Part shown: positions 3,456 through 21,667 of the stretch, piece after piece
Layout of the letters: each line of letters begins with the position of its first letter
How positions within the stretch are numbered: the first letter of the stretch is position 1
Source of the DNA: Shigella phage ESh4
Sequence record: ON528718
DNA length: 51,077 nt
Reading direction: 5' to 3' (one strand)
Position numbers and translations under genes: made by a program
Notes under the pieces: model-generated
The model's database searches: none
What the model was told of the DNA's origin: nothing
What the model saw: only the letters and a program-made list of their open reading frames with translations

Positions 3456-4157
3456 TTAGCTCCGTTTCCTTGCGCGACGGCCTTTGACAGAAGGGCACAT
3501 ATCGCTTATTTTCACGTAATGCGTTTGCTGTTGCTCTCCGCCTTTCAGTTGGCGCATAACAAAAATAACGCTTCCTTTATTGTTGCCTTGTACGGACTCA
3601 CCAGTCAGGCCAGAAATGAAGGCAAGTCGTCCGGTGCGGGAGCATTCCACACCTCCTTCCTCGTACACCTCGCCAGTGATCCAGATGATTTCCGCAGCGT
3701 GCTTTTGCGCTTCGTAAAACCAGGCTGTCGAGTTGTCCGCTGGCAACAAAATATCAATCTGGTTGTTGTGTTCCATTTGCTCAATCGCCTTCTTAACAAA
3801 TGGCGTAATATTGCTGTACGGTGGATTCAGCCATATATGCTTATTACTACCCCACCAACGCTTTAGGCAGTTGGTTTCCTTGCTATAAAACTTCTCGCAA
3901 ACTGCGTTTTCTGCTGATGCTGCCGCGTCGAGATCGTATTTCCCATATCGTCCAGACATCCACGCAACAACCTCCGGCGGCGATTGCCACAAATCGCGCA
4001 CAATGTCCGGCGTATTGCTGCCGTTATAGCGGTTGCCAGTCACTTTGAAATATTGATTTGGTTTAACAGCCTGATAATGACCACCAGTAGCAAGAGCATT
4101 ACCAATGAATGTTTCGCGTTCTATTTGTTCAAATGTCACTTCAGTTTCTTTGCTCAT
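3456..4157 (-). CDS. dam: DNA N6-adenine methyltransferase (Dam-like)
   Basis: NPPY catalytic motif (WLNPPYSN), DLDAAAS SAM-binding-like motif; typical phage Dam size. Confidence 0.8.
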   Translation of the reverse strand: MSKETEVTFEQIERETFIGNALATGGHYQAVKPNQYFKVTGNRYNGSNTPDIVRDLWQSPPEVVAWMSGRYGKYDLDAAASAENAVCEKFYSKETNCLKRWWGSNKHIWLNPPYSNITPFVKKAIEQMEHNNQIDILLPADNSTAWFYEAQKHAAEIIWITGEVYEEGGVECSRTGRLAFISGLTGESVQGNNKGSVIFVMRQLKGGEQQQTHYVKISDMCPSVKGRRARKRS

Positions 4158-4191
4158 TTCTTAATTACCTGTTGCTTGTTGAACTGGTGTT

Positions 4192-4237
4192 ATTATGGCG
4201 CAATCCTTCGCGCCTGTTTTAACAAAAAGTGCTATTT
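4192..4237 (-). promoter_or_regulatory. conserved promoter-like unit
   Basis: Sense: AAATAGCACTTTTTGTTAAAAC-AGGCGCGAAGGATTGCGC-CATAAT, hairpin GGCGC/GCGCC in spacer; 35 nt upstream of Dam start. Confidence 0.55.
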
Positions 4238-4651
4238 CATCATGTATTCTACCGCGATCATGAATTGCTTATATCCGTATGTTACGGCAGCGAATCCGCC
4301 AAGCTCACGCACACGACGCAAGAAGGCTTTTTGCTCCTTGCTTACTTGTGATGCCTTACCCTTGCCGGACTTATTGACGCGCTTCATCTCTATTGCCGCG
4401 AAAGGGTAACGGCCTTTTAATCCAATCAGGATGATAAAATCACTTACGCCCTTAACAAGCCCAGCTTGCTGATCCATCATTGCGGTGGCGATCCCCTTTT
4501 CCCCCTCATTTTTAGTATGCCATGCCAGCAATTCAGGATGAGCATAAGTTACCCATTGAAACGCGCCTATCTGATGCGATTCTTCTTTTAGTGTATCTGT
4601 CGGATCTCTTTCGTAAAACTCCAGATAATCGCCTTTATCAGTCATTGCCAT
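4232..4651 (-). CDS. VRR-NUC domain nuclease
   Basis: VRR-NUC-like core (SDFIILIGLKGRYPFAAIEMKRV...GKASQVSKEQKAFL); start moved to ATG at 4651 with AAGGA RBS to avoid 47-nt overlap with helicase. Confidence 0.65.
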   Translation of the reverse strand: MAMTDKGDYLEFYERDPTDTLKEESHQIGAFQWVTYAHPELLAWHTKNEGEKGIATAMMDQQAGLVKGVSDFIILIGLKGRYPFAAIEMKRVNKSGKGKASQVSKEQKAFLRRVRELGGFAAVTYGYKQFMIAVEYMMK

Positions 4652-12186: not shown

Positions 12187-12625
12187 ATGCGTTTAACCCT
12201 TCTCCGTTATCTCTATGCCATTGCTTATGGTGTGCTTGGCATAACCATCTAACTGATAAAGGTTTGCTGTAATCGTCATGGTGTGCAACTGATTTTTCAC
12301 TACCGCAAATTTCACACGGTGATTTTTCCACCTTCCCATCACGTAATGCGTTATTCAATGCATTGTGTGCCTTATACTTTCCTGGAAATTTATTTCTCCA
12401 TTGTTTTAAATATTCTTTGTCTTGCCGGTTTCCTCTTTTTTTATCGTAATCTCTTTTTTCATCTATGTTATCCCATCTGTTTTTTGTGACATCTTTTTTT
12501 GTACATTCTTTGCACTTATTTAAGTGTCCATCAGCCATCCGTTTATGCTTATAAAATTCTTTAAGGGGCTTTACAGCCCCGCATTTAAAGCATTTCTTAA
12601 AGCGCATAGATTCGATGTTTTCCAT
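12185..12625 (-). CDS. HNH homing endonuclease
   Basis: N-terminal Cys pairs (CFKCG...CKEC) and HNH core (CEICG...VAHHDDYSKPL...WLCQAHH). Confidence 0.75.
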   Translation of the reverse strand: MENIESMRFKKCFKCGAVKPLKEFYKHKRMADGHLNKCKECTKKDVTKNRWDNIDEKRDYDKKRGNRQDKEYLKQWRNKFPGKYKAHNALNNALRDGKVEKSPCEICGSEKSVAHHDDYSKPLSVRWLCQAHHKQWHRDNGEGLNA

Positions 12626-13094
12626 ATTGCAATCCTACACTAGCAAAAGGGATGTCGTCGTCAAAGTCCATAGGAGGCTGATTGCTTTGTCTTGGCTGTT
12701 GCGGTTGTTGCGGTTGATTCTGTTGTTGTGGCTGGCCCCATCCTCCTTGAGTTCGCTGCTGATATTGTTGCTGGCTTTCCCCACGCTGACTGAAGATAAG
12801 ATTTGCAAATCCTCCTGGCATTAAGCTTGAATACATCTTTCCGTTATATTCACGCGTCTCAATGCGCAGCGTGTCGCAAGATACAGAAATAACCTTGCCA
12901 ACCTGGAACGCCTCATCATACCAACCATTAAGTCCGTCAGTTTTCGCATTAAAAAAGAAACTGTAGTTTGTATATTGCCAGTTTCCATCTTTATCTTTGT
13001 ATCGCTCTGAAAGTTCAACCACATAAAGTGTGCTTCCGTTAGGCATTTGCTTTACTCGCGGCTCTTTTCTGATCTCACCAGTAATAATATGCAT
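12597..13094 (-). CDS. ssb: single-stranded DNA-binding protein (SSB) with 15-aa C-terminal extension
   Basis: OB-fold-like N-terminus, Gly/Gln/Pro-rich linker, canonical acidic tip DFDDDIPF, but ORF continues ASVGLQYGKHRIYAL into the HNH gene; AGGAGA RBS. Confidence 0.8.
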   Translation of the reverse strand: MHIITGEIRKEPRVKQMPNGSTLYVVELSERYKDKDGNWQYTNYSFFFNAKTDGLNGWYDEAFQVGKVISVSCDTLRIETREYNGKMYSSLMPGGFANLIFSQRGESQQQYQQRTQGGWGQPQQQNQPQQPQQPRQSNQPPMDFDDDIPFASVGLQYGKHRIYAL

Positions 13095-14200: not shown

Positions 14201-15262
14201 TTAAATAAGATATTGCTTAAACTGGCGGCGCACCCAATCAGGAGTATCAAGGCAAACCTCAGGCTCACCGTTTGAATACGAAGGCCAAACGTCATGTTGC
14301 TGGCACATGGCAAACTGGTTAATCACGCTCATGTACTGAATGCGCCCGATCTTCAACTGCTCGCTATTCATGCGGAAAGCCAACGGCAAATAAGGTTCTT
14401 TCTTCTCTTGCGCTAACAGTCGCACAACTATAGGTCGCTTTTCTTCTGGATACGCTTTTCTGAATAAATCACATTGCAACGCCATTTTCAAATAATAGCC
14501 GTGATTGTAAGCCAGGCGCATAAACTCAGCCGGATTCGCGCTCATTGTTGTTTTGTAGTCAGTAATCACAATCGCCTCTGGATAAATAATATCGCGGCAA
14601 ATCGGTTGACCTTTTTCATCGTAACCATCAATCAGAGTTGCTGTCACGTTCTTTGTTACGTCAACGTGATCGCATCGCACTTTGACTTTTACGCCGTTGA
14701 TTTCACCGAACAACGATAATTCACGTTGTGCTGTCTTGCTATTCATACATGCGTTATGTTCCGGTATTGATTCCAGAACCTGGCGCATTGCCACGCACGA
14801 ATCGTAATCTTTAGCCTCGATTAACTGAACCCCATCGGCCCTAGCCTGGCTTTCTGCGATCATGTCGATTAACCACATGACGTTAAGGTCTTCTCCGCAG
14901 TCAACCATCATTTTTATAAGTTCTGGGTAAGTCTTTCCGGTTGTACCTTTCAGGCCAAATGATTTCAGCTTTGCAGCAAGCGCCGTTTGGCTGGTTATCA
15001 GATCCTTAAAGTCTTCTGGCGCTGGCGCACGGCGATAGGTTTTTTCGAAAAGCTCCTTGCTTTCAAAGTTGGTATGCGACTGCGTACCAAAAACTAGCGC
15101 CTTGCTCTTATCGTCACGAGGCTTGAACTTCCACGCTGCCGGGCATGTGCTGTAAATCTCTGCCAGGCTTGAACCGCTAACATAATCAGCCGTCCACGCT
15201 TCTGGATCGTGATAAAGCTCGTTGCTCATTTCTTCGCTGGTGTACGCCATAAACTTATTCAT
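14201..15262 (-). CDS. PD-(D/E)xK family recombination exonuclease
   Basis: D...ITDYKT core typical of RecB/YqaJ-like nucleases; first gene of leftward recombination operon. Confidence 0.65.
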   Translation of the reverse strand: MNKFMAYTSEEMSNELYHDPEAWTADYVSGSSLAEIYSTCPAAWKFKPRDDKSKALVFGTQSHTNFESKELFEKTYRRAPAPEDFKDLITSQTALAAKLKSFGLKGTTGKTYPELIKMMVDCGEDLNVMWLIDMIAESQARADGVQLIEAKDYDSCVAMRQVLESIPEHNACMNSKTAQRELSLFGEINGVKVKVRCDHVDVTKNVTATLIDGYDEKGQPICRDIIYPEAIVITDYKTTMSANPAEFMRLAYNHGYYLKMALQCDLFRKAYPEEKRPIVVRLLAQEKKEPYLPLAFRMNSEQLKIGRIQYMSVINQFAMCQQHDVWPSYSNGEPEVCLDTPDWVRRQFKQYLI

Positions 15263-15291
15263 GATTTGCCCTCGTTTGTTGGTATGCCTGC

Positions 15292-15319
15292 ATTTTAGCT
15301 ATTTAATGCGTTTAGTCAA
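15292..15319 (-). promoter_or_regulatory. sigma70-like promoter (TTGACT-16-TAAAAT)
   Basis: Good -35/-10 pair 30 nt upstream of exonuclease start. Confidence 0.5.
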
Positions 15320-15429
15320 CAGTTATTTTGTTTTTTCTGTTCTAACAACGTTCCAGACGAATCGAATAACAAAATTTACATGTAAGTGATTGATAAATAT
15401 CTTTGTTGTCTTTTTGTTCCCTTGTTCCT

Positions 15430-15620
15430 CCGTTTGCGCCGGATATAGATATATAGACACACACAAACACTGACACATACACAACCACATAAAAATTACC
15501 AGGCACACAAAATCACACAAAACATAGATAACAAGAAAAAAACAAATATAAATATATATACTACTAACTTATTGATTTATATGTATGTATATATATTTAT
15601 CTGTATGTATAGCGCTCTAT
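15430..15620. repeat. low-complexity CA-rich then TA/TG-rich tract
   Basis: acacacaaacactgacacatacacaaccacata... followed by tatgtatgtatatatatttatctgtatgtata; non-coding divergent junction. Confidence 0.7.
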
Positions 15621-15690
15621 TGATGTTCACTTTTTGAGCTAAATTTAAGCCTCCGCAGATTTGAGAACACTGGAGAACAAAAAGAACAGA

Positions 15691-15733
15691 ATAGCACTTT
15701 TTGCTAAACGCCTACCGTAAGATCATGTATAGT
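15691..15733 (+). promoter_or_regulatory. conserved promoter-like unit (variant TTGCTA)
   Basis: ATAGCACTTTTTGCTAAAC + 21 bp + TATAGT, 32 nt upstream of ORF 15765. Confidence 0.5.
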
Positions 15734-15764
15734 TGCAACTAACAACAACGAAGGAGAAACCAAG

Positions 15765-15995
15765 ATGAAAAAATTAATCGCTGTTTTGATTGCGGCCGTA
15801 ACCCTGACTGGTTGTGCAAATAACCTGAAAAACGGAGACTGTGTTACTTACGCTTACGGATCCTGCATGATGCGCTTTGTTGATGGTAATAAAGTTCCAG
15901 CAGGAGAGATTGATATGCGATTCAAAGGGCTTTCGTCTGACGATAACCAGGGCAATTTCAGTGGTAAGGTATCTGTTAAATCTAGGGAGTGGTGA
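15765..15995 (+). CDS. small lipoprotein (possible Cor/Llp-like superinfection exclusion protein)
   Basis: Signal peptide with lipobox LTGC (MKKLIAVLIAAVTLTGC); 76 aa; located beside tail/host-range genes. Confidence 0.5.
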   Translation: MKKLIAVLIAAVTLTGCANNLKNGDCVTYAYGSCMMRFVDGNKVPAGEIDMRFKGLSSDDNQGNFSGKVSVKSREW

Positions 15996-15998
15996 TTC

Positions 15999-16955
15999 AT
16001 GGGGCATGGTATATATATAAATTTAAATGATGGGCGACCAGCAATGGAAATAACATCAGGATTGCGAGCACCATCATATTGTGGGGCAATACAGGCCGAC
16101 GGTGTTGACTCATCTGGCTCTGTTTTTGATTTCGGCTTACAAATGAGTCCTGGATCTAGCGCTTTTTGCCTTCCATCTCAGGCCGTTTATATTGACGATA
16201 TGGAATACATTCCAGAGGTTTATTATTTAACCAGCTTCCAAAAGGTTAATGATTCAGTAGGCAGAATAACCGTTGGAAACTTTAACGGTAGCGGCGGTCG
16301 CAGGATGAGGTTTTACGGAAATTGCTACGAAATATTACCAGCAAGCACGTATAATCAGGGGATGCTTGTAAGTGATTCAACTGATTTTTCGGCAATACCA
16401 AATAACGCGAGATTGATGAGCGCCGCATTCGTTGGTGGGATTAATGTTAATGGGTATGCTCAACTTCCAGTACCAGGAATCCCATTTGGAATGTGGGATA
16501 ATCCGAATGTGACGCTTGAATCTGATGGTAATGGAATATGGTGTCGTGATGCTAACTATAATGGTACTGATGATGTTGCTGGCAGCACATACGTTCAGTT
16601 GGTGATATTTAATAACACTCCGCCACCACCAGGACCAGGAATAACAATGAGTAATGCCTCCGGTCAGATAGTATTTTCAAGCGTTAGACGTCCATTTGTT
16701 CTTGCTGGGTTTATGGGTATTAGTGATACATGGCAGTGGTGCGGAGGTTTTTTTCCAATAATGAGAACCGGAACAATATGCAGGGTTGTCGGTGGATACA
16801 ACAACATAAGATATAAAGGTGTGTGCATGAGTGGAGGTAATGTCAGGTCATCTCCAGGCACAAGAGTTGGTAACTATTCAACTCAAGGCGGAGCAAACTT
16901 TCCATTCAATATAAATATTTCAATGCCAATACCATTTACTCCAAATATGTATTAA
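15999..16955 (+). CDS. hypothetical protein (318 aa, Gly/Asn/Ser-rich, PPPPGPG motif)
   Basis: ORF immediately after lipoprotein gene; ends at bidirectional terminator. Confidence 0.5.
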   Translation: MGHGIYINLNDGRPAMEITSGLRAPSYCGAIQADGVDSSGSVFDFGLQMSPGSSAFCLPSQAVYIDDMEYIPEVYYLTSFQKVNDSVGRITVGNFNGSGGRRMRFYGNCYEILPASTYNQGMLVSDSTDFSAIPNNARLMSAAFVGGINVNGYAQLPVPGIPFGMWDNPNVTLESDGNGIWCRDANYNGTDDVAGSTYVQLVIFNNTPPPPGPGITMSNASGQIVFSSVRRPFVLAGFMGISDTWQWCGGFFPIMRTGTICRVVGGYNNIRYKGVCMSGGNVRSSPGTRVGNYSTQGGANFPFNINISMPIPFTPNMY

Positions 16956-16978
16956 AAAAGGGGGCAATAGCCCCCTTT
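16954..16978. terminator. bidirectional intrinsic terminator
   Basis: AAAAAA-GGGGGC-AATA-GCCCCC-TTTAAA between convergent 15999-16955 and J. Confidence 0.6.
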
Positions 16979-16981
16979 AAA

Positions 16982-19900
16982 TTACCACACACCAACAACA
17001 ACTCGTCCACCATTGGGAAGGTTTACAGTGATGCCATTGTTATTTATAACAACGGTGTTATTTGTTCCATTAAAAGCAAAACTACCGTTTGAAGCATAAA
17101 GCGATCCTCTAACAGTAACATTGTTCAACTCGGCTGCTCCTGATTTGTTAATCATCCACCCCTGCACTCCAGATACGAAGTTGTTTGATTGAATAACGTT
17201 ACCGATCTTAGCATTTGTGATTGAACCGTCTTTCACCAACAGGCTGTTAATGAATACCTGGTTATTTTCCACCACAAAAGGCAACGTATACGATCCTCCA
17301 GTAGAACTTGTCATGATAGCGAACCTGTTCGCATCAAACAAAATCTGCGAAATAAGGCCGGATGAACCCTGTGAAAGCTGCATCACCATACCAGCGCTGT
17401 ACTTCTGACCGTTATATGTCAATCCCAATTTCATTGCGTACTGTGCGCCAACTCCATTAACGCCAGCCCATGAATCAAGTTTTTCAGTAAGTGCCGATTC
17501 AACATCTCCAAACTTCGCTGTTAATGCTGTATCAGCCGAAACGCGCGCCTCTGTTTCGCTTGCAATCGCCTCCTCAACCCGCGTTAATTGCCCCTGAATA
17601 TCATCATCAATCTGTGATTTCAATTCCTCAATGGCTGTTGCTCGCGTTTCCGATTCTGTTGCAATTGCCTGATCAAGCCTTGTTACTTCGCTAGTTATTT
17701 CCTCGTCAAATTCAGCCTTGAGTTGCGTCATTGCGGTAACGCGCGCCTCAGTTTCATCTGCGATCAACTGTATTGATTGCCTGAATTCGGCTTTGCGTTT
17801 TCCGTTTTCCTTCATCATAATCCTAACGTCTGCATCATTCGCCAATGCGTTTTGAATGATGCTTTGTGCCTGATCCTTGATTTTGTTTGCGCTATCAATG
17901 GCATTCTCTTTCAGATCCTTTCCTGCTTCAGTGTCAAAAATCTTATCAAGAATATCTCCTAAAACAGCCTCCACATCATCTGAAGCCATACCTCTAACAA
18001 AATTAGTCCAGCCGGAGACGTTGCCGATTCTGTCAACGCTGCGGATCCTATACCAGACAACATGACCAGCCGGAAGCGTACCGTGCCAGTATTCATATTG
18101 TGGATACGGGATCAGCGTTAGCAGGCTTGAGTTTTCAGCCGTTCCATCCGGCGACTGGTGAAGCTCAATGTATGCCGTGTCTCCGCTCCCTTCTGGCATA
18201 CCCCACTTAACACGAATGCCAAACACCTCATTGTCGGATGCTGTTAAGTTAACTGGCGCGCCTGGCTCTCCCACCTTACCAGTCAGTGAAGCTGTCACAA
18301 TTCTGGACCACGGAGAAGTAGAACCTGAAGCGGAAACAGATCTGACCCTTACTTGGTAGTTTCCTGAATAAATACCTTCAACCTCAATTTCTTTGTTTGC
18401 AGTCTGTGGTGTATTCAGCCAGTTGCCATCACCTTTTCGCCACTGCATTTCATACAGCGATGCGTAAGGTACTTTATCCCACGACACAACCATTGTTTCA
18501 ACGCTTGCACCCTGGACAATTCGCGAGTATGAGGATATTTGCACGTTTTCCGGTGCTGCCATTTTGTCAGGCTGGACAATTGACGTTGGCCTGTCGTCAA
18601 TGTTTACTCCGTAATCAATCTCGTCGTATTTGTTAGGGTCATATTCAACAGCCGTGATGGAGTATGTAAATTCATCATCACCATCACCTTTGCCGATACT
18701 CGTTACAACGTATTGCTGCAATGCAATATCAGTGCGGTCGATTGCAAAAACCGTGTCAGGTTTAACTTCAAATCCAAACCCAATATTTAGCTCAATGGTT
18801 TTTCCGTCACCGCTTACTTTTGAGATTGTGCGCTTAACTGGCTTTCCGTCCGGCTTGTTGATGATAATGAAATCACCTGGTCTAGCATCAATCTTAAACG
18901 GAACGAACACCTGCAAGCCGGAAACTTCCATCACGCGCCCTGATAGGTTTAACTTCAGGTTGCTGCTGTGAAAGTTGTCAGCAATAGCAATCACATCACC
19001 TATTGATGGGATCATGCCTTCCAGTCCAGTAGCAAAGTTTACCGTAGTGCTGCGCAAGTTGGTTTTTAGTATCCATCGACCTCGCCGATTAGCCTCACTC
19101 CTGCGTGTACATCCGATCGCTGTTATGCTTGTCGGATTGTATCCAAAGCGTAGTGCCGCCTCAGTATCAAACACGCCTTCTACGTCCTGCTGATACATGT
19201 TTTGTTCGTCGTCGAACGTCACATTGCACTGCGTGTACATGCTCTTTTCACTTGCTGTTGTGTACTGGAAATCACCATCAACAACATTGTCATTTGTGAA
19301 GATGTACGACGGATCGCGCGGCTTATCAATGACGATTGACAAGCTCTCCCCATTCCAAAAGCTCATGCCTCTGAATATTGAGCAAATATCACGAATAAGC
19401 TGATAAGCCTCAATCTGACTCTGGATAACAACATCACATAGATAGCGTGGCTCTGTGCCTCCTTTTCCGTCTGGAACTTTCTGATCGCAGTATTGCGCAG
19501 CTTCGTAAAGACTCCACTTATCAACCTGTACACCAAGCTCTCGCTGATCTAATCCGTATCGCTGGTTTGTGATAATGTCATAAAGTACCCACGCCGGATT
19601 GTTAGACCACGCTTTCTTGAACGTACCATTCCATGAGCCGTGATACTCTCGCATTACCGGATCGTAATTGCTCGGAACATTAATCAACTTCCATTTCTTC
19701 TTGATTGAAATGTTAGGGATCTGGTTAGGGAACAACTCGCTGTCAAATTCAACGTATACAAGGCCAGTCAGAGGGTAACGGAATTTTGCATCAATAACCT
19801 CAGCGTAACTTTGTAGCTTAATCAGATCAGTAACGCGAGAAGATGCGCTGTCTGCCGTTACCCTTCTAACCCTAAGCAATACGCGATCATTAAATGCCGG

Positions 19901-20437
19901 AAGGTCAATCCTTCGGCTTCTGTCGTAACCGGAACGCGTTTTACCTTCGATAGTGTCTCGCAATACTTCTTTGTAAGAGTCTCCGTCAACAGCCATATCA
20001 ACAGCATAAGTAACCTTAACGCCGACAAGATCGCCGTTATCCTCTTGCTTAATGCCTGTTGGCATTAGCATTTTGATTCTGATAGCAGATAATGTTTTGT
20101 TGGTTACGGAAATCACATAAGGATTTGACGTGGTAATATCACGCGCCAGCGTCACTTCGCTTGATGTGTCAGTAAATCCCTGGATGTAATCTTGAGTCTG
20201 TGTACCTGGGCGAAACTCTGCGCTCACACCTTGGTAGTTAACAGTTCCGTCGTCTGCAATTACCGGAACATCATCAAGATACAGATCGCGAAGTGTAAAA
20301 TCTGGATCGCACTCGCCATCGGAAACGGCAAGAAGGATTTTGATTTTGTTGATTGAGATCAGGTTATCTTCCATCTCTTTCGGAACATAAGGTTTTGATG
20401 ATCCTCCCTTACTTCCCGTTATCATATTTTCAGCCAT
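16982..20437 (-). CDS. tail tip/host specificity protein J (central tail fibre)
   Basis: 1151 aa; size, position after I/K/L/M and lambda gpJ-like organisation. Confidence 0.85.
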   Translation of the reverse strand: MAENMITGSKGGSSKPYVPKEMEDNLISINKIKILLAVSDGECDPDFTLRDLYLDDVPVIADDGTVNYQGVSAEFRPGTQTQDYIQGFTDTSSEVTLARDITTSNPYVISVTNKTLSAIRIKMLMPTGIKQEDNGDLVGVKVTYAVDMAVDGDSYKEVLRDTIEGKTRSGYDRSRRIDLPAFNDRVLLRVRRVTADSASSRVTDLIKLQSYAEVIDAKFRYPLTGLVYVEFDSELFPNQIPNISIKKKWKLINVPSNYDPVMREYHGSWNGTFKKAWSNNPAWVLYDIITNQRYGLDQRELGVQVDKWSLYEAAQYCDQKVPDGKGGTEPRYLCDVVIQSQIEAYQLIRDICSIFRGMSFWNGESLSIVIDKPRDPSYIFTNDNVVDGDFQYTTASEKSMYTQCNVTFDDEQNMYQQDVEGVFDTEAALRFGYNPTSITAIGCTRRSEANRRGRWILKTNLRSTTVNFATGLEGMIPSIGDVIAIADNFHSSNLKLNLSGRVMEVSGLQVFVPFKIDARPGDFIIINKPDGKPVKRTISKVSGDGKTIELNIGFGFEVKPDTVFAIDRTDIALQQYVVTSIGKGDGDDEFTYSITAVEYDPNKYDEIDYGVNIDDRPTSIVQPDKMAAPENVQISSYSRIVQGASVETMVVSWDKVPYASLYEMQWRKGDGNWLNTPQTANKEIEVEGIYSGNYQVRVRSVSASGSTSPWSRIVTASLTGKVGEPGAPVNLTASDNEVFGIRVKWGMPEGSGDTAYIELHQSPDGTAENSSLLTLIPYPQYEYWHGTLPAGHVVWYRIRSVDRIGNVSGWTNFVRGMASDDVEAVLGDILDKIFDTEAGKDLKENAIDSANKIKDQAQSIIQNALANDADVRIMMKENGKRKAEFRQSIQLIADETEARVTAMTQLKAEFDEEITSEVTRLDQAIATESETRATAIEELKSQIDDDIQGQLTRVEEAIASETEARVSADTALTAKFGDVESALTEKLDSWAGVNGVGAQYAMKLGLTYNGQKYSAGMVMQLSQGSSGLISQILFDANRFAIMTSSTGGSYTLPFVVENNQVFINSLLVKDGSITNAKIGNVIQSNNFVSGVQGWMINKSGAAELNNVTVRGSLYASNGSFAFNGTNNTVVINNNGITVNLPNGGRVVVGVW

Positions 20438-21114: not shown

Positions 21115-21667
21115 AATCACCTCTACTTTTTCTTAACGCGACGATTGCAGGCGCTATGTACTTTAAAAATTCCTCGTGCGTGTAGTTATGCATTCGCGTT
21201 ACGTTGCAAAGCTGGCAGCAAGTGACGCAATTATCTTTAGTGTGTCCTTTTGTGTTATCTATCCTGTCGAAGCCGTTACATAGTGGATCTATGTATCCGC
21301 AGTATACGCAAGGCTTTACTAGTTCCTTAATGCAGTAATCAACATCCAAATCATTCTCAAGATTCTTTTTTTTATCTATTTTTTGGTAGCCTTTTAGTCT
21401 TAATATTTGCGGATTGTTGATTCTGTATCTTCTGCCGTATTCGCTTTTTTTAGCCTTTCCCTCTGGCGTACTGAGCAATCTTTTGTTGTATGCTCTCTGG
21501 CTTGCAAGATACTTGTCCTTGTTGTCCCCCTTCCATTTCTTTTGCCTGTCGTAGTCGCATGTTTTGCATTTATTCCTATGACCATCGGCGCAAGTCTTCG
21601 CCTTCGGAAACTCGCTTAATTTTTTAACCTCTCCGCAGACGTTGCATTTCTTCTCTACTGTCAACAT
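21095..21667 (-). CDS. HNH endonuclease inserted in tail module
   Basis: Cys pairs (CNVCG...CKTC) and HNH-type core (CVYCG...GFDRIDNTKGHTKDNCVTCCQLCN); overlaps both neighbours. Confidence 0.7.
   Translation of the reverse strand: MLTVEKKCNVCGEVKKLSEFPKAKTCADGHRNKCKTCDYDRQKKWKGDNKDKYLASQRAYNKRLLSTPEGKAKKSEYGRRYRINNPQILRLKGYQKIDKKKNLENDLDVDYCIKELVKPCVYCGYIDPLCNGFDRIDNTKGHTKDNCVTCCQLCNVTRMHNYTHEEFLKYIAPAIVALRKSRGDYDTEND

Follow-up and report, generated by a model that had tools for sequence, protein, structure and literature searches.

Two adjacent genes that run towards the gpJ homologue in the 51,077-nt window analysed here (Shigella phage ESh4, sequence record ON528718) very probably encode an LptD-binding receptor-binding protein (RBP) and an LptD-blocking lipoprotein carried on a swapped module. 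We are confident that these genes form the receptor-specificity locus, here of the type that targets LptD; in Drexlerviridae and related phages this locus is situated downstream of gpJ and has been called the 'bona fide RBP locus'. The window itself is a Hanrivervirus-like Drexlerviridae phage, a T1-like siphophage. The features of the locus are listed in Table 1. The 76-aa lipoprotein ORF is followed after a 3-bp gap (15996-15998) by the 318-aa ORF, and both are convergent with the gene of the 1151-aa gpJ homologue; the ORF calls gave the positions, the spacing and the convergence on J exactly as placed in the first-pass annotation of this DNA. Judged by their Pfam scores (PF24052, 83.6 bits; PF20051, 425 bits), both ORFs are genuine genes. 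They are probably co-transcribed (we infer this, as well as the timing of expression) and translationally linked across the gap. In the synteny comparison, the same layout convergent with a J homologue was also present in Rtp, Oekolampad, Shfl1 and pSf-1. The order in Rtp is rtp45-rtp44, convergent with rtp43/J, and the pair in Oekolampad is bas18_0026/0025.

Table 1 Features of the locus. Coordinates are positions in the window.
Feature	Coordinates	Strand	Basis or remark
Conserved left flank: AT-rich upstream region, ribosome-binding site, signal peptide and lipobox codons	15500..15822	+	92-97% nt identity to Hanriverviruses with other receptor modules
76-aa Rtp45-family superinfection-exclusion lipoprotein (predicted function)	15765..15995	+	PF24052, phrog_4281, 9rps_D match
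Exchanged receptor-specificity module: mature lipoprotein domain, RBP, terminator, J tip	15823..17174	both	1352 bp; sliding identity
318-aa dedicated receptor-binding protein, DUF6453, Rtp44 / RBP-Oekolampad family; predicted target LptDE	15999..16955	+	PF20051, 9rpt_C, AlphaFold2 model
GC-rich hairpin GGGGGC-AATA-GCCCCC plus A/U pairs, probable shared intrinsic terminator	16957..16978	both	folding energies
gpJ-like central tail fibre / tail-tip protein, presumed RBP carrier	16982..20437	-	PF09327, PF24801, PF13550; phrog_31 'central tail fiber J'
Last ~64 gpJ codons, C-terminal tip ...FAFNGTNNTVVINNNGITVNLPNGGRVVVGVW	16985..17174	-	travels with the module; likely RBP docking site

Receptor-binding protein

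The 318-aa protein matched PF20051 (DUF6453) at 425.4 bits (cut-off 25; E=1.5e-127), with residues 4-295 aligned to positions 1-291 of the 291-position model. The PDB sequence search returned 9rpt_C over the full length (E=9.4e-65), and identities calculated end to end were 40% to RBP-Oekolampad, 41% to Rtp44 and 66% to the MSK RBP. The AlphaFold2 model (pLDDT 87.3, pTM 0.85) is all-beta, consisting of strands and no helix. When this model was compared to the PDB with Foldseek, 9rpt_C was the sole match at E<=0.001 (E=1.7e-20; TM-score 0.89 normalised by target and 0.72 by query). The model is superimposable on the solved RBP-Oekolampad, and the fold of the LptD RBP family has been described as two beta-sandwiches (Black et al., PMC13035648). 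Membership of this family has been defined as more than 30% identity at more than 99% coverage (bioRxiv 10.64898/2026.04.02.716166), and the 318-aa protein lies above both values. Its richness in Gly, Asn and Ser and its PPPPGPG motif, both remarked upon earlier, were found as described (G+N+S is 30.8%; the motif occupies residues 208-214).

From its homology to Rtp44 and the Oekolampad RBP, we conclude that the 318-aa protein is the primary, dedicated RBP of this phage, and the receptor is predicted to be LptD(E), not FhuA or BtuB. The first-pass annotation had considered the neighbour of the lipoprotein as a possible second host-range or exclusion determinant, or as a receptor-binding accessory. 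Involvement in host range agrees with our results; a secondary or accessory role does not, as its homology to a solved RBP extends from end to end. Experimental support comes closest with OzMSK, which fails to infect two LptD loop-deletion mutants (PMC13035648); MSK and OzMSK are near-identical, with 9 nt different. The conserved residues of these RBPs lie mainly at the tail-proximal base and not in the receptor-contacting loops (Black et al., PMC13035648), and therefore shared receptor specificity is not guaranteed by homology alone. The allele of the window is new; none of the records searched exceeds 89% aa identity to it.

Predicted exclusion lipoprotein

The N-terminus of the 76-aa protein, MKKLIAVLIAAVTLTG, is followed by Cys17. 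The hydrophobic core has a Kyte-Doolittle value of 2.7, the lipobox is L-T-G-C and Ala18 stands at position +2; the secreted lipoprotein with an LTGC lipobox that had been noticed earlier is thus borne out, with lipidation expected at Cys17. Since the +2 residue is Ala and not Asp, the protein would be sorted to the outer membrane according to the E. coli +2 rule. The mature domain has 60 aa and contains Cys26 and Cys34. In the Pfam search the protein matched PF24052 over residues 3-76 (83.6 bits, cut-off 27, E=9.4e-24), for which Rtp45 itself scored 128 bits, and it fell just under the cut-off of PF08139 (19.5 compared to 20). The PHROG search gave phrog_4281 (E=3.6e-35). With phmmer (E<=1), the whole PDB yielded Rtp45 (9rps_D, E=6e-9) and one chance match, and nothing else.

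Identity of the mature domain is 73% to the superinfection-exclusion (SE) protein of Oekolampad and 37% to Rtp45; the match of the lipoprotein to Rtp45 is modest (35-37% identity). The disulfide pair of Rtp45, Cys30 and Cys38 (described in PMC12685063), has its counterpart in Cys26 and Cys34. In the alignment of six homologues, G24, C26, G32, C34, G41, V44, P45, G47, D50, R52, G55, E75 and W76 were invariant, and the motif VPAGExDxR and the C-terminal EW are conserved in the alignment with the Rtp45 family. By these matches the lipoprotein is a member of the Rtp45 family (PF24052) and a relative of neither Cor nor Llp. In the solved structure (9rps, PMC12685063), Rtp45 sits at the periplasmic face of LptD; AlphaFold predictions for Rtp45, related lipoproteins and their complexes have been reported as wrong or unreliable (PMC12685063). 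By analogy, the lipoprotein of the window is predicted to block LptD in infected cells, not FhuA or BtuB. As the predicted receptor is LptD(E), a negative result would be expected if the lipoprotein were challenged with FhuA- or BtuB-dependent phages. Kuravirus-like podoviruses (Gordonclarkvirinae) also encode members of this lipoprotein family, in their early region.

Module exchange and the gpJ tip

Among the Hanriverviruses, JakobBernoulli uses FhuA and KarlJaspers uses BtuB (PMC8594841 S5 Table). Measured in steps of 100 nt, nucleotide identity between the window and JakobBernoulli amounts to 89-97% as far as position 15822 and then falls to 29-60%; in the sliding comparison over the whole region it is 29-60% within the module and 88-100% outside. 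The left end is shared widely, with more than 40 phage records aligned to 15500-15822 of the window (query 1-323) at 92-93%, all of which end at the same point. This flank contains the ribosome-binding site of the lipoprotein gene (GGAG, 15753-15756). In the comparison to Shfl1, a phage of a different subfamily, the segment between 15800 and about 17100 shows 71-86% identity, whereas the flanks next to it mostly show 44-70%. The ends of the module thus fall just after the lipobox, with the signal peptide shared, and within the last ~64 codons of J. These profiles indicate that 15823-17174 was swapped by recombination, relative to the FhuA-dependent sister JakobBernoulli.

Homology of JakobBernoulli to J of the window resumes only at 17175. 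The comparison of the J tip rests on explicit alignments of seven loci, in which the tip of the FhuA-type JakobBernoulli differs from that of the window, and pSf-1, Shfl1, Rtp and MSK agree almost completely over the last ~32 residues; the tip of Oekolampad is more diverged and still alignable (59% identical). The tip is therefore kept across six phages of this RBP family from four lineages and co-varies with the RBP type, a co-variation that has been noted elsewhere too (bioRxiv 10.64898/2026.04.02.716166). The J tip is the likely docking site of the RBP. We also performed tblastn with the C-terminal 59 aa of J; the low-complexity filter cut many true matches to residues 1-30 (as in ISF002 and pSf-2), so that the counts from this search are unusable.

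The window pairs an Oekolampad-type SE lipoprotein with an MSK-type RBP. As the MSK RBP is 66% identical to that of the window while the MSK lipoprotein is of the Rtp45 subtype, the two genes have been reassorted between lineages.

Alternative explanations

An exclusion lipoprotein of the Cor or Llp type had been suggested in the first-pass annotation. A receptor-blocking lipoprotein beside the tail-tip gene remains our prediction in general; the kinship with Cor or Llp was not upheld, as the mature part is PF24052. In our estimate it is extremely improbable that a lipoprotein of that type inactivates FhuA or BtuB here and that the 318-aa protein serves as an accessory or as another exclusion factor. 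Although Cor-annotated genes of sister Hanriverviruses have almost the same signal peptide and upstream region and the PHROG search returned Cor (phrog_1119, E=2.7e-6), that match covers only residues 1-33, essentially the signal peptide. JakobBernoulli bas07_0026, the counterpart of the Cor-annotated sister genes, aligns with the lipoprotein of the window only across signal peptide and lipobox, with no similarity in the mature domain, and it was not placed in PF24052 by the Pfam search. The PDB-wide phmmer search (E<=1) returned Rtp45 and matched no Llp or Cor structure, and there was no Llp-related Pfam match. Gene content argues in the same direction, as the FhuA-type locus of JakobBernoulli has a 101-aa and a 223-aa gene on the J strand that are related to N15 gp23. 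No Pfam family was matched by these two genes, and we assigned them via homology to N15 gp23 and the BASEL receptor table (PMC8594841 S5 Table). Nor does an accessory role fit a 318-aa protein that is homologous to a solved RBP from end to end. We give just as little weight to the view that this protein is a 'membrane protein' or moron located in the host envelope and not a virion component. The labels 'membrane protein' and 'moron, auxiliary metabolic gene and host takeover' do stand in RefSeq (pSf-1, Shfl1 and others) and PHROG 1265; however, the protein has no signal peptide and no hydrophobic segment compatible with a transmembrane helix (the maximum Kyte-Doolittle mean over 19 aa is 1.25), and its model is a soluble all-beta fold without helix.

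More weight, although still little, is given to the explanation that the two families are as described above and this subtype of RBP has diverged to use another outer-membrane receptor, with the lipoprotein blocking that receptor; we consider this unlikely. RBP subtypes of the family are only 33-43% identical to one another, the best-characterised ones (Oekolampad, Rtp44/Bas01) are only about 40% identical to that of the window, and conservation is concentrated at the tail-proximal base and not at the receptor-contacting tip (PMC13035648). Among T5-like phages, pb5 homologues of ~30% identity switch between FhuA and BtuB (bioRxiv 10.64898/2026.04.02.716166). However, every family member with an experimentally determined receptor uses LptD, across Braunvirinae, Dhillonvirus and Queuovirinae (bioRxiv 10.64898/2026.04.02.716166, PMC13035648). 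The nearest tested relative, MSK/OzMSK at 66% identity, is LptD-dependent, and the lipoprotein encoded next to the RBP of the window shares 73% identity in its mature domain with the one from Oekolampad, a phage that depends on LptD. We therefore retain LptD as the predicted receptor.

Related systems

Coliphage Rtp (Braunvirinae) has an identical two-gene arrangement, with a near-identical locus in AugustePiccard (Bas01). Rtp44 and Rtp45 belong to the same Pfam families as the proteins of the window, the genes are likewise contiguous with the lipoprotein before the RBP and convergent with a J homologue, and the J C-terminal tip is the same. Rtp45 is a structurally characterised LptD-binding exclusion lipoprotein (9rps). 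The two phages differ in that the backbone is of a different subfamily, the RBPs share 41% and the mature lipoproteins 37% identity, and the lipoprotein subtype is 'NGDC...YGSC' in the window and 'DGWC...GVC' in Rtp45. Oekolampad (Bas18, Dhillonvirus; RBP bas18_0025, SE bas18_0026; PDB 9rpt, 9rpw, 9rqi) has the same RBP family, fold and locus layout and an SE lipoprotein of the same subtype as the window (73% in the mature domain), whereas its RBP is 40% and its J tip 59% identical and the phage lies outside Drexlerviridae. Of the relatives that have experimental support, the RBP of MSK/OzMSK (Braunvirinae) comes closest (66% over the full length), and its LptD dependence was shown genetically; the MSK lipoprotein is of the Rtp45 subtype, with 74% identity to Rtp45 and 37% to that of the window. 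The closest alleles are those of Shfl1, pSf-2, ISF001/002 and SA32RD (Tunavirinae) and pSf-1 (Hanrivervirus), whose RBPs are 84-89% and whose lipoproteins are 83-85% identical in aa sequence. For these Shfl1/pSf-1-type alleles, at up to 89%, the use of LptD is by prediction; SH6, the sole Tunavirinae phage modelled by Black et al., was 'predicted LptD-dependent' (PMC13035648).

T5 pb5 and Llp act on FhuA by the same logic, that is, a monomeric tail-tip RBP and a periplasm-facing lipoprotein that bars the RBP from inside (PMC9586334). However, they have no kinship with the pair of the window in sequence or fold, and their receptor is a TonB-dependent transporter. Llp works through long-range allostery, whereas Rtp45 displaces loop EL4 sterically. 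Cor of phi80/N15/T1-type phages (the FhuA module) is found at the equivalent genomic position in sister Hanriverviruses, and its gene has promoter region and signal peptide in common with that of the window; in contrast, its mature protein is unrelated to that of the window, and the FhuA module has other RBP-side genes in the opposite orientation.

Model and significance

The mechanism we propose is modelled on the cryo-EM structures of LptDE-RBP and LptDE-Rtp45 (PMC12685063); LptD binding, exclusion, location of the RBP in the virion and docking on the J tip are predictions for this phage. The RBP would be monomeric and all-beta, held non-covalently at the tail-tip end of J via the 'base' at its N-terminus, which is highly conserved. 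The distal loops would enter the extracellular mouth of the LptD barrel in the LptDE lipopolysaccharide translocon, and this insertion would commit the phage to DNA injection. The lipoprotein would be exported, lipidated at Cys17, sorted to the inner leaflet of the outer membrane owing to Ala at +2, and bound to LptD from the periplasm. If it acts like Rtp45, a beta-hairpin would then be pushed up the barrel lumen and extracellular loop 4 displaced, so that RBPs of this and other LptD-binding phages could not dock. The outcome would be superinfection exclusion, and progeny would be kept from sticking to the debris of lysed cells. The swap has turned a Hanrivervirus backbone, whose sisters use FhuA or BtuB, to predicted LptD dependence.

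The terminal receptor of this phage can be predicted from its sequence as LptD, which is an essential and conserved protein. The misleading labels 'membrane protein / moron' and 'Cor' in related records can be corrected. The boundaries 15823-17174 would define the piece to move in order to switch the receptor of a Hanrivervirus among FhuA, BtuB and LptD, and the J tip would have to move together with the RBP. The type of locus was already described in 2021 and its mechanism solved structurally in 2025, and beyond the allele, the labels and the boundaries nothing is conceptually new. A broader and tentative reading, which we regard as doubtful, is that the locus is a three-part portable receptor switch (SE domain, RBP and J tip) with fixed junctions, in which SE and RBP reassort independently and any Rtp45-family lipoprotein protects against all LptD RBP subtypes; Gordonclarkvirinae would then either engage LptD or shut out LptD-dependent competitors.

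Transcription signals

The lipoprotein gene had been credited with its own promoter unit. This was not confirmed by a consensus scan of 15260-17100: in the 360 nt that precede the lipoprotein ATG, the + strand gave no sigma-70-like site, and the total of such sites was not above that of shuffles. A promoter is nevertheless likely in the 502-bp gap upstream of the lipoprotein gene, because this gap is AT-rich and separates divergently transcribed genes. The same scan flagged no terminator at the hairpin between the convergent genes, probably because the flanking A/U pairs stretch the stem into the T-run, and we set this negative result aside since direct folding gives a strong hairpin. The gap between the two stop codons is 26 bp and holds a 9-bp GC-rich hairpin that is probably a shared intrinsic terminator. 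A bidirectional terminator, as annotated before, is plausible on both strands and stronger for J. On the - strand, the one relevant to J, the hairpin is followed by a clean run of U6 and folds at -22.6 kcal/mol (z -4.4), whereas the + strand has the poor tail UUUAAAUU and folds at -16.9 kcal/mol (z -3.7); 0 of 200 shuffles fold as well.

Anatomy of the cassette

The cassette very probably encodes a receptor-binding protein (RBP) that targets LptD, of the outer-membrane lipopolysaccharide translocon LptDE, and its Rtp45-family superinfection-exclusion lipoprotein (in phage Rtp, Rtp45 is the exclusion lipoprotein and Rtp44 the RBP). The anatomy described in the first-pass annotation, a 76-aa lipoprotein ORF, a 3-bp gap and a 318-aa ORF convergent with J, was borne out by the ORF list and the raw sequence. 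The proposed bidirectional terminator stood in part. The hairpin folds on both strands far more stably than shuffled controls (-16.9 and -22.6 kcal/mol; z -3.7 and -4.4), but a clean U6 tail follows it on the J strand only, the + strand tail being weaker. It was not flagged in a simple terminator scan. A promoter scan upstream of the lipoprotein gene gave no convincing sigma-70 site, and the separate promoter unit proposed for this gene in the first-pass annotation therefore stays putative. The AT-rich part (15540-15610) of the 502-bp divergent intergenic region carries TATGTATGTA-like repeats with a 10-bp phase, together with several imperfect inverted repeats, and may serve as a regulatory element or as curved DNA; this stretch is kept in sister phages irrespective of module type.

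Features of the cassette and other ORFs. Positions are in the window unless stated otherwise.
Feature	Position	Strand	Remarks
Lipoprotein ORF, 76 aa	15765-15995	+	starts MKKLIAVLIAAVTLTG/C; classical type II signal peptide; lipobox LTGC
RBP ORF, 318 aa	15999-16955	+	PPPPGPG at residues 208-214
Hairpin, 9-bp, GC-rich	16957-16978	both	between stop codons of 318-aa gene and J
gpJ homologue, 1151 aa	16982-20437	-	convergent with lipoprotein and 318-aa genes
Endonuclease VII/HNH-like ORF, 146 aa	12185-12625	-	phrog_2340, E=1e-37; follows SSB gene
Endonuclease VII/HNH-like ORF, 190 aa	21095-21667	-	phrog_1035, E=3e-24; between two tail genes
Bas91_0098, Rtp45-family lipoprotein	3977-4258 (Bas91, Escherichia phage LorandFenyves)		PF24052, E=2.4e-36

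Identity of the 318-aa protein

The 318-aa protein, 31% of whose residues are Gly, Asn or Ser, matched Pfam DUF6453 (PF20051) over its full length with 425 bits, and also PHROG 1265. A PDB sequence search gave a single match, end to end (E=9.4e-65), to 9rpt_C ('Tail fiber protein'), which is the RBP of Oekolampad (Bas18) seen by cryo-EM in the extracellular mouth of Shigella flexneri LptDE in an open state (Dunbar et al., PNAS 2025, PMC12685063). The same chain was the sole significant PDB structural match (E=1.7e-20, target-normalised TM 0.89) of a confident AlphaFold2 model built with 50 homologues, which is entirely beta (pLDDT 87.3, pTM 0.85). The first-pass annotation had suggested that the protein may be a second host-range or exclusion determinant or a receptor-binding accessory; this homology in sequence and fold makes it very probably the primary RBP, a role that was underestimated.

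The identity is 40% to the Oekolampad RBP, 41% to Rtp44 and 66% to the corresponding ORF of MSK, which differs by 9 nt from its twin OzMSK; the latter fails on a pair of LptD mutants with loop deletions (PMC13035648). What doubt is left mainly concerns whether the RBP subtype of the window still targets LptD, the nearest experimentally tested relative being 66% identical. In the model, PPPPGPG falls in a strand-free segment (206-215) that separates strand 196-205 from strand 216-218; P209 and G214 do not vary among the 50 homologues, and G212 hardly does. Conservation in the family is highest in the N-terminal ~25 residues, the tail-proximal base according to Black et al. (PMC13035648). Nothing more than 89% identical to this RBP allele was found among the records and protein clusters searched; the allele is a new member of a kind of locus described in 2021, with the mechanism solved in 2025. 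DUF6453 homologues of 40-47% identity are also frequent in Citrobacter, Salmonella and E. coli, on chromosomal contigs of megabase scale and on one E. coli plasmid, which suggests that temperate siphophages (prophages) use the same RBP family.

Identity of the lipoprotein

The lipoprotein scored 83.6 bits against PF24052 ('Phage lipoprotein family'), on which Rtp45 scored 128 bits, and in a PDB sequence search it matched 9rps_D, Rtp45 bound to LptDE-LptM (PMC12685063). In the alignment, its Cys26 and Cys34 fall on Cys30 and Cys38, the disulfide of Rtp45 (PMC12685063), and six homologues show no variation in the VPAGExDxR segment or the C-terminal EW. Cryo-EM shows Rtp45 at the periplasmic face of LptD, flanked by LptE and LptM, with a hairpin up the LptD lumen and extracellular loop 4 displaced by up to 20 Å, so that the RBP is sterically blocked (PMC12685063). 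In the window's lipoprotein, Ala directly follows the lipidated Cys. Under the E. coli +2 rule, Ala here predicts the outer-membrane sorting that an Rtp45-type mechanism requires.

The first-pass annotation had proposed a receptor-blocking exclusion factor like Cor or Llp, to be assayed with FhuA- and BtuB-dependent phages. The function is still predicted, through the Rtp45 family, but the family is not Cor or Llp and the predicted target is LptD. The PHROG Cor aligns to residues 1-33 only, the lipoprotein of JakobBernoulli (Bas07), whose counterparts are annotated Cor in sister phages, shares the signal peptide only, and no Llp structure was matched in the PDB sequence search. The 'membrane protein / moron' label of RefSeq and PHROGs is likewise unfounded for the 318-aa protein because the latter has no hydrophobic segment and no helix is predicted in its model. 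RBP homologues widely carry the label 'membrane protein', in the category 'moron, auxiliary metabolic gene and host takeover' (RefSeq records of pSf-1, Shfl1, pSf-2 and others; PHROG 1265), and 'Cor' is applied uniformly to the lipoprotein slot in several Hanriverviruses. For LptD-type modules both are misleading.

Exchange of the receptor module

The same two genes, adjoining and likewise ordered, run towards J in Rtp (rtp45/rtp44/rtp43), Oekolampad (bas18_0026/0025/0024), Shfl1 and pSf-1. Its position is the 'bona fide RBP locus' described by Maffei et al. (2021), whose alleles were matched one by one to FhuA, BtuB, YncD or LptD (PMC8594841), and which was confirmed in a 2026 preprint on 255 phages (bioRxiv 10.64898/2026.04.02.716166). 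Across 83-88% of its length, the initial 25-kb part of the window shows 94-95% identity to Hanriverviruses (such as vojen, slyngel and JakobBernoulli; Drexlerviridae/Tempevirinae), and the genes around the cassette are the usual T1-type set, with exonuclease VIII, Erf and SSB upstream and divergent and gpJ and tail assembly downstream.

The receptor of JakobBernoulli is FhuA by experiment (BASEL S5 Table, PMC8594841). Per 100-nt window, nucleotide identity to this phage is 88-100% on both sides but 29-60% within 15823-17174. Its FhuA module differs in gene content: besides the lipoprotein of the type annotated Cor, it has two genes on the same strand as J, of 101 aa and 223 aa, which are relatives of N15 gp23. 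The left junction, two to three codons past the lipidated cysteine, is the exact alignment end for more than 40 phages with other modules. On the right, the junction falls within J, ~64 codons before the stop, and the J tip therefore moves together with the RBP, in agreement with the suggestion that the GpJ tip gives structural compatibility with the locus-encoded RBP (bioRxiv 10.64898/2026.04.02.716166). The last ~32 residues of the tip (FAFNGTNNTV.INNNGITVNLPNGGRVVVG) hardly differ among pSf-1, Shfl1, Rtp and MSK, are more diverged but still alignable in Oekolampad, and are different in JakobBernoulli. Against Shfl1 (Tunavirinae), identity is mostly 44-70% in the adjacent flanks and 71-86% from 15800 to ~17100, a pattern that we read as a signature of horizontal transfer.

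The two genes themselves differ in history. For the window's mature lipoprotein, identity is 73% to the Oekolampad protein and 37% to the Rtp and MSK proteins, whereas for its RBP it is 66% to MSK and ~40% to Oekolampad and Rtp. In MSK, an Rtp-type lipoprotein (74%) occurs together with an RBP that is not of the Rtp type (39%). These discordant identities indicate that LptD-type modules have recombined internally, between the two genes. Such reassortment fits the mechanism, since a lipoprotein acting on the receptor from the periplasm need not match the RBP.

The two endonuclease VII/HNH-like ORFs lie in segments missing from pSf-1 and JakobBernoulli (homology gaps 12187-12645 and 21116-21664) and are probably homing-endonuclease insertions, one on each side of the receptor module at distances of ~3.6 kb and 4 kb.

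Related modules in other records

Shigella phage 2019SD1 (NC_049820.1) keeps most of the lipoprotein gene (89% nucleotide identity over window 15500-15973) but of the RBP it has no more than two fragments, within residues 72-207, on the strand opposite to the lipoprotein. This looks like a rearranged or degraded module, or else a faulty assembly. The unannotated GenBank records MG0656xx ('Campylobacter phage A1xx'), labelled as Campylobacter jejuni phages, are 81-93% identical in nucleotides to this T1-like region, and some contain the same module; the host assignment looks wrong and the records are probably coliphage contaminants.

Rtp45-family lipoproteins were also found in Gordonclarkvirinae/Kuravirus-like podoviruses (Bas91, Bas88, Bas93, Bas94, SU10, EP335, KBNP1711, 172-1). 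Bas91_0098 keeps both cysteines, VPxGExDxR and the C-terminal EW, and its gene lies away from the tail genes, in the early-gene region, adjoining a tRNA-Arg and a homing endonuclease. The BASEL-2 paper's model for these podoviruses is O-antigen glycans followed by the LPS core, by analogy with T-even phages. The lipoprotein could be a sign of LptD use, or of the exclusion of LptD-dependent competitors.
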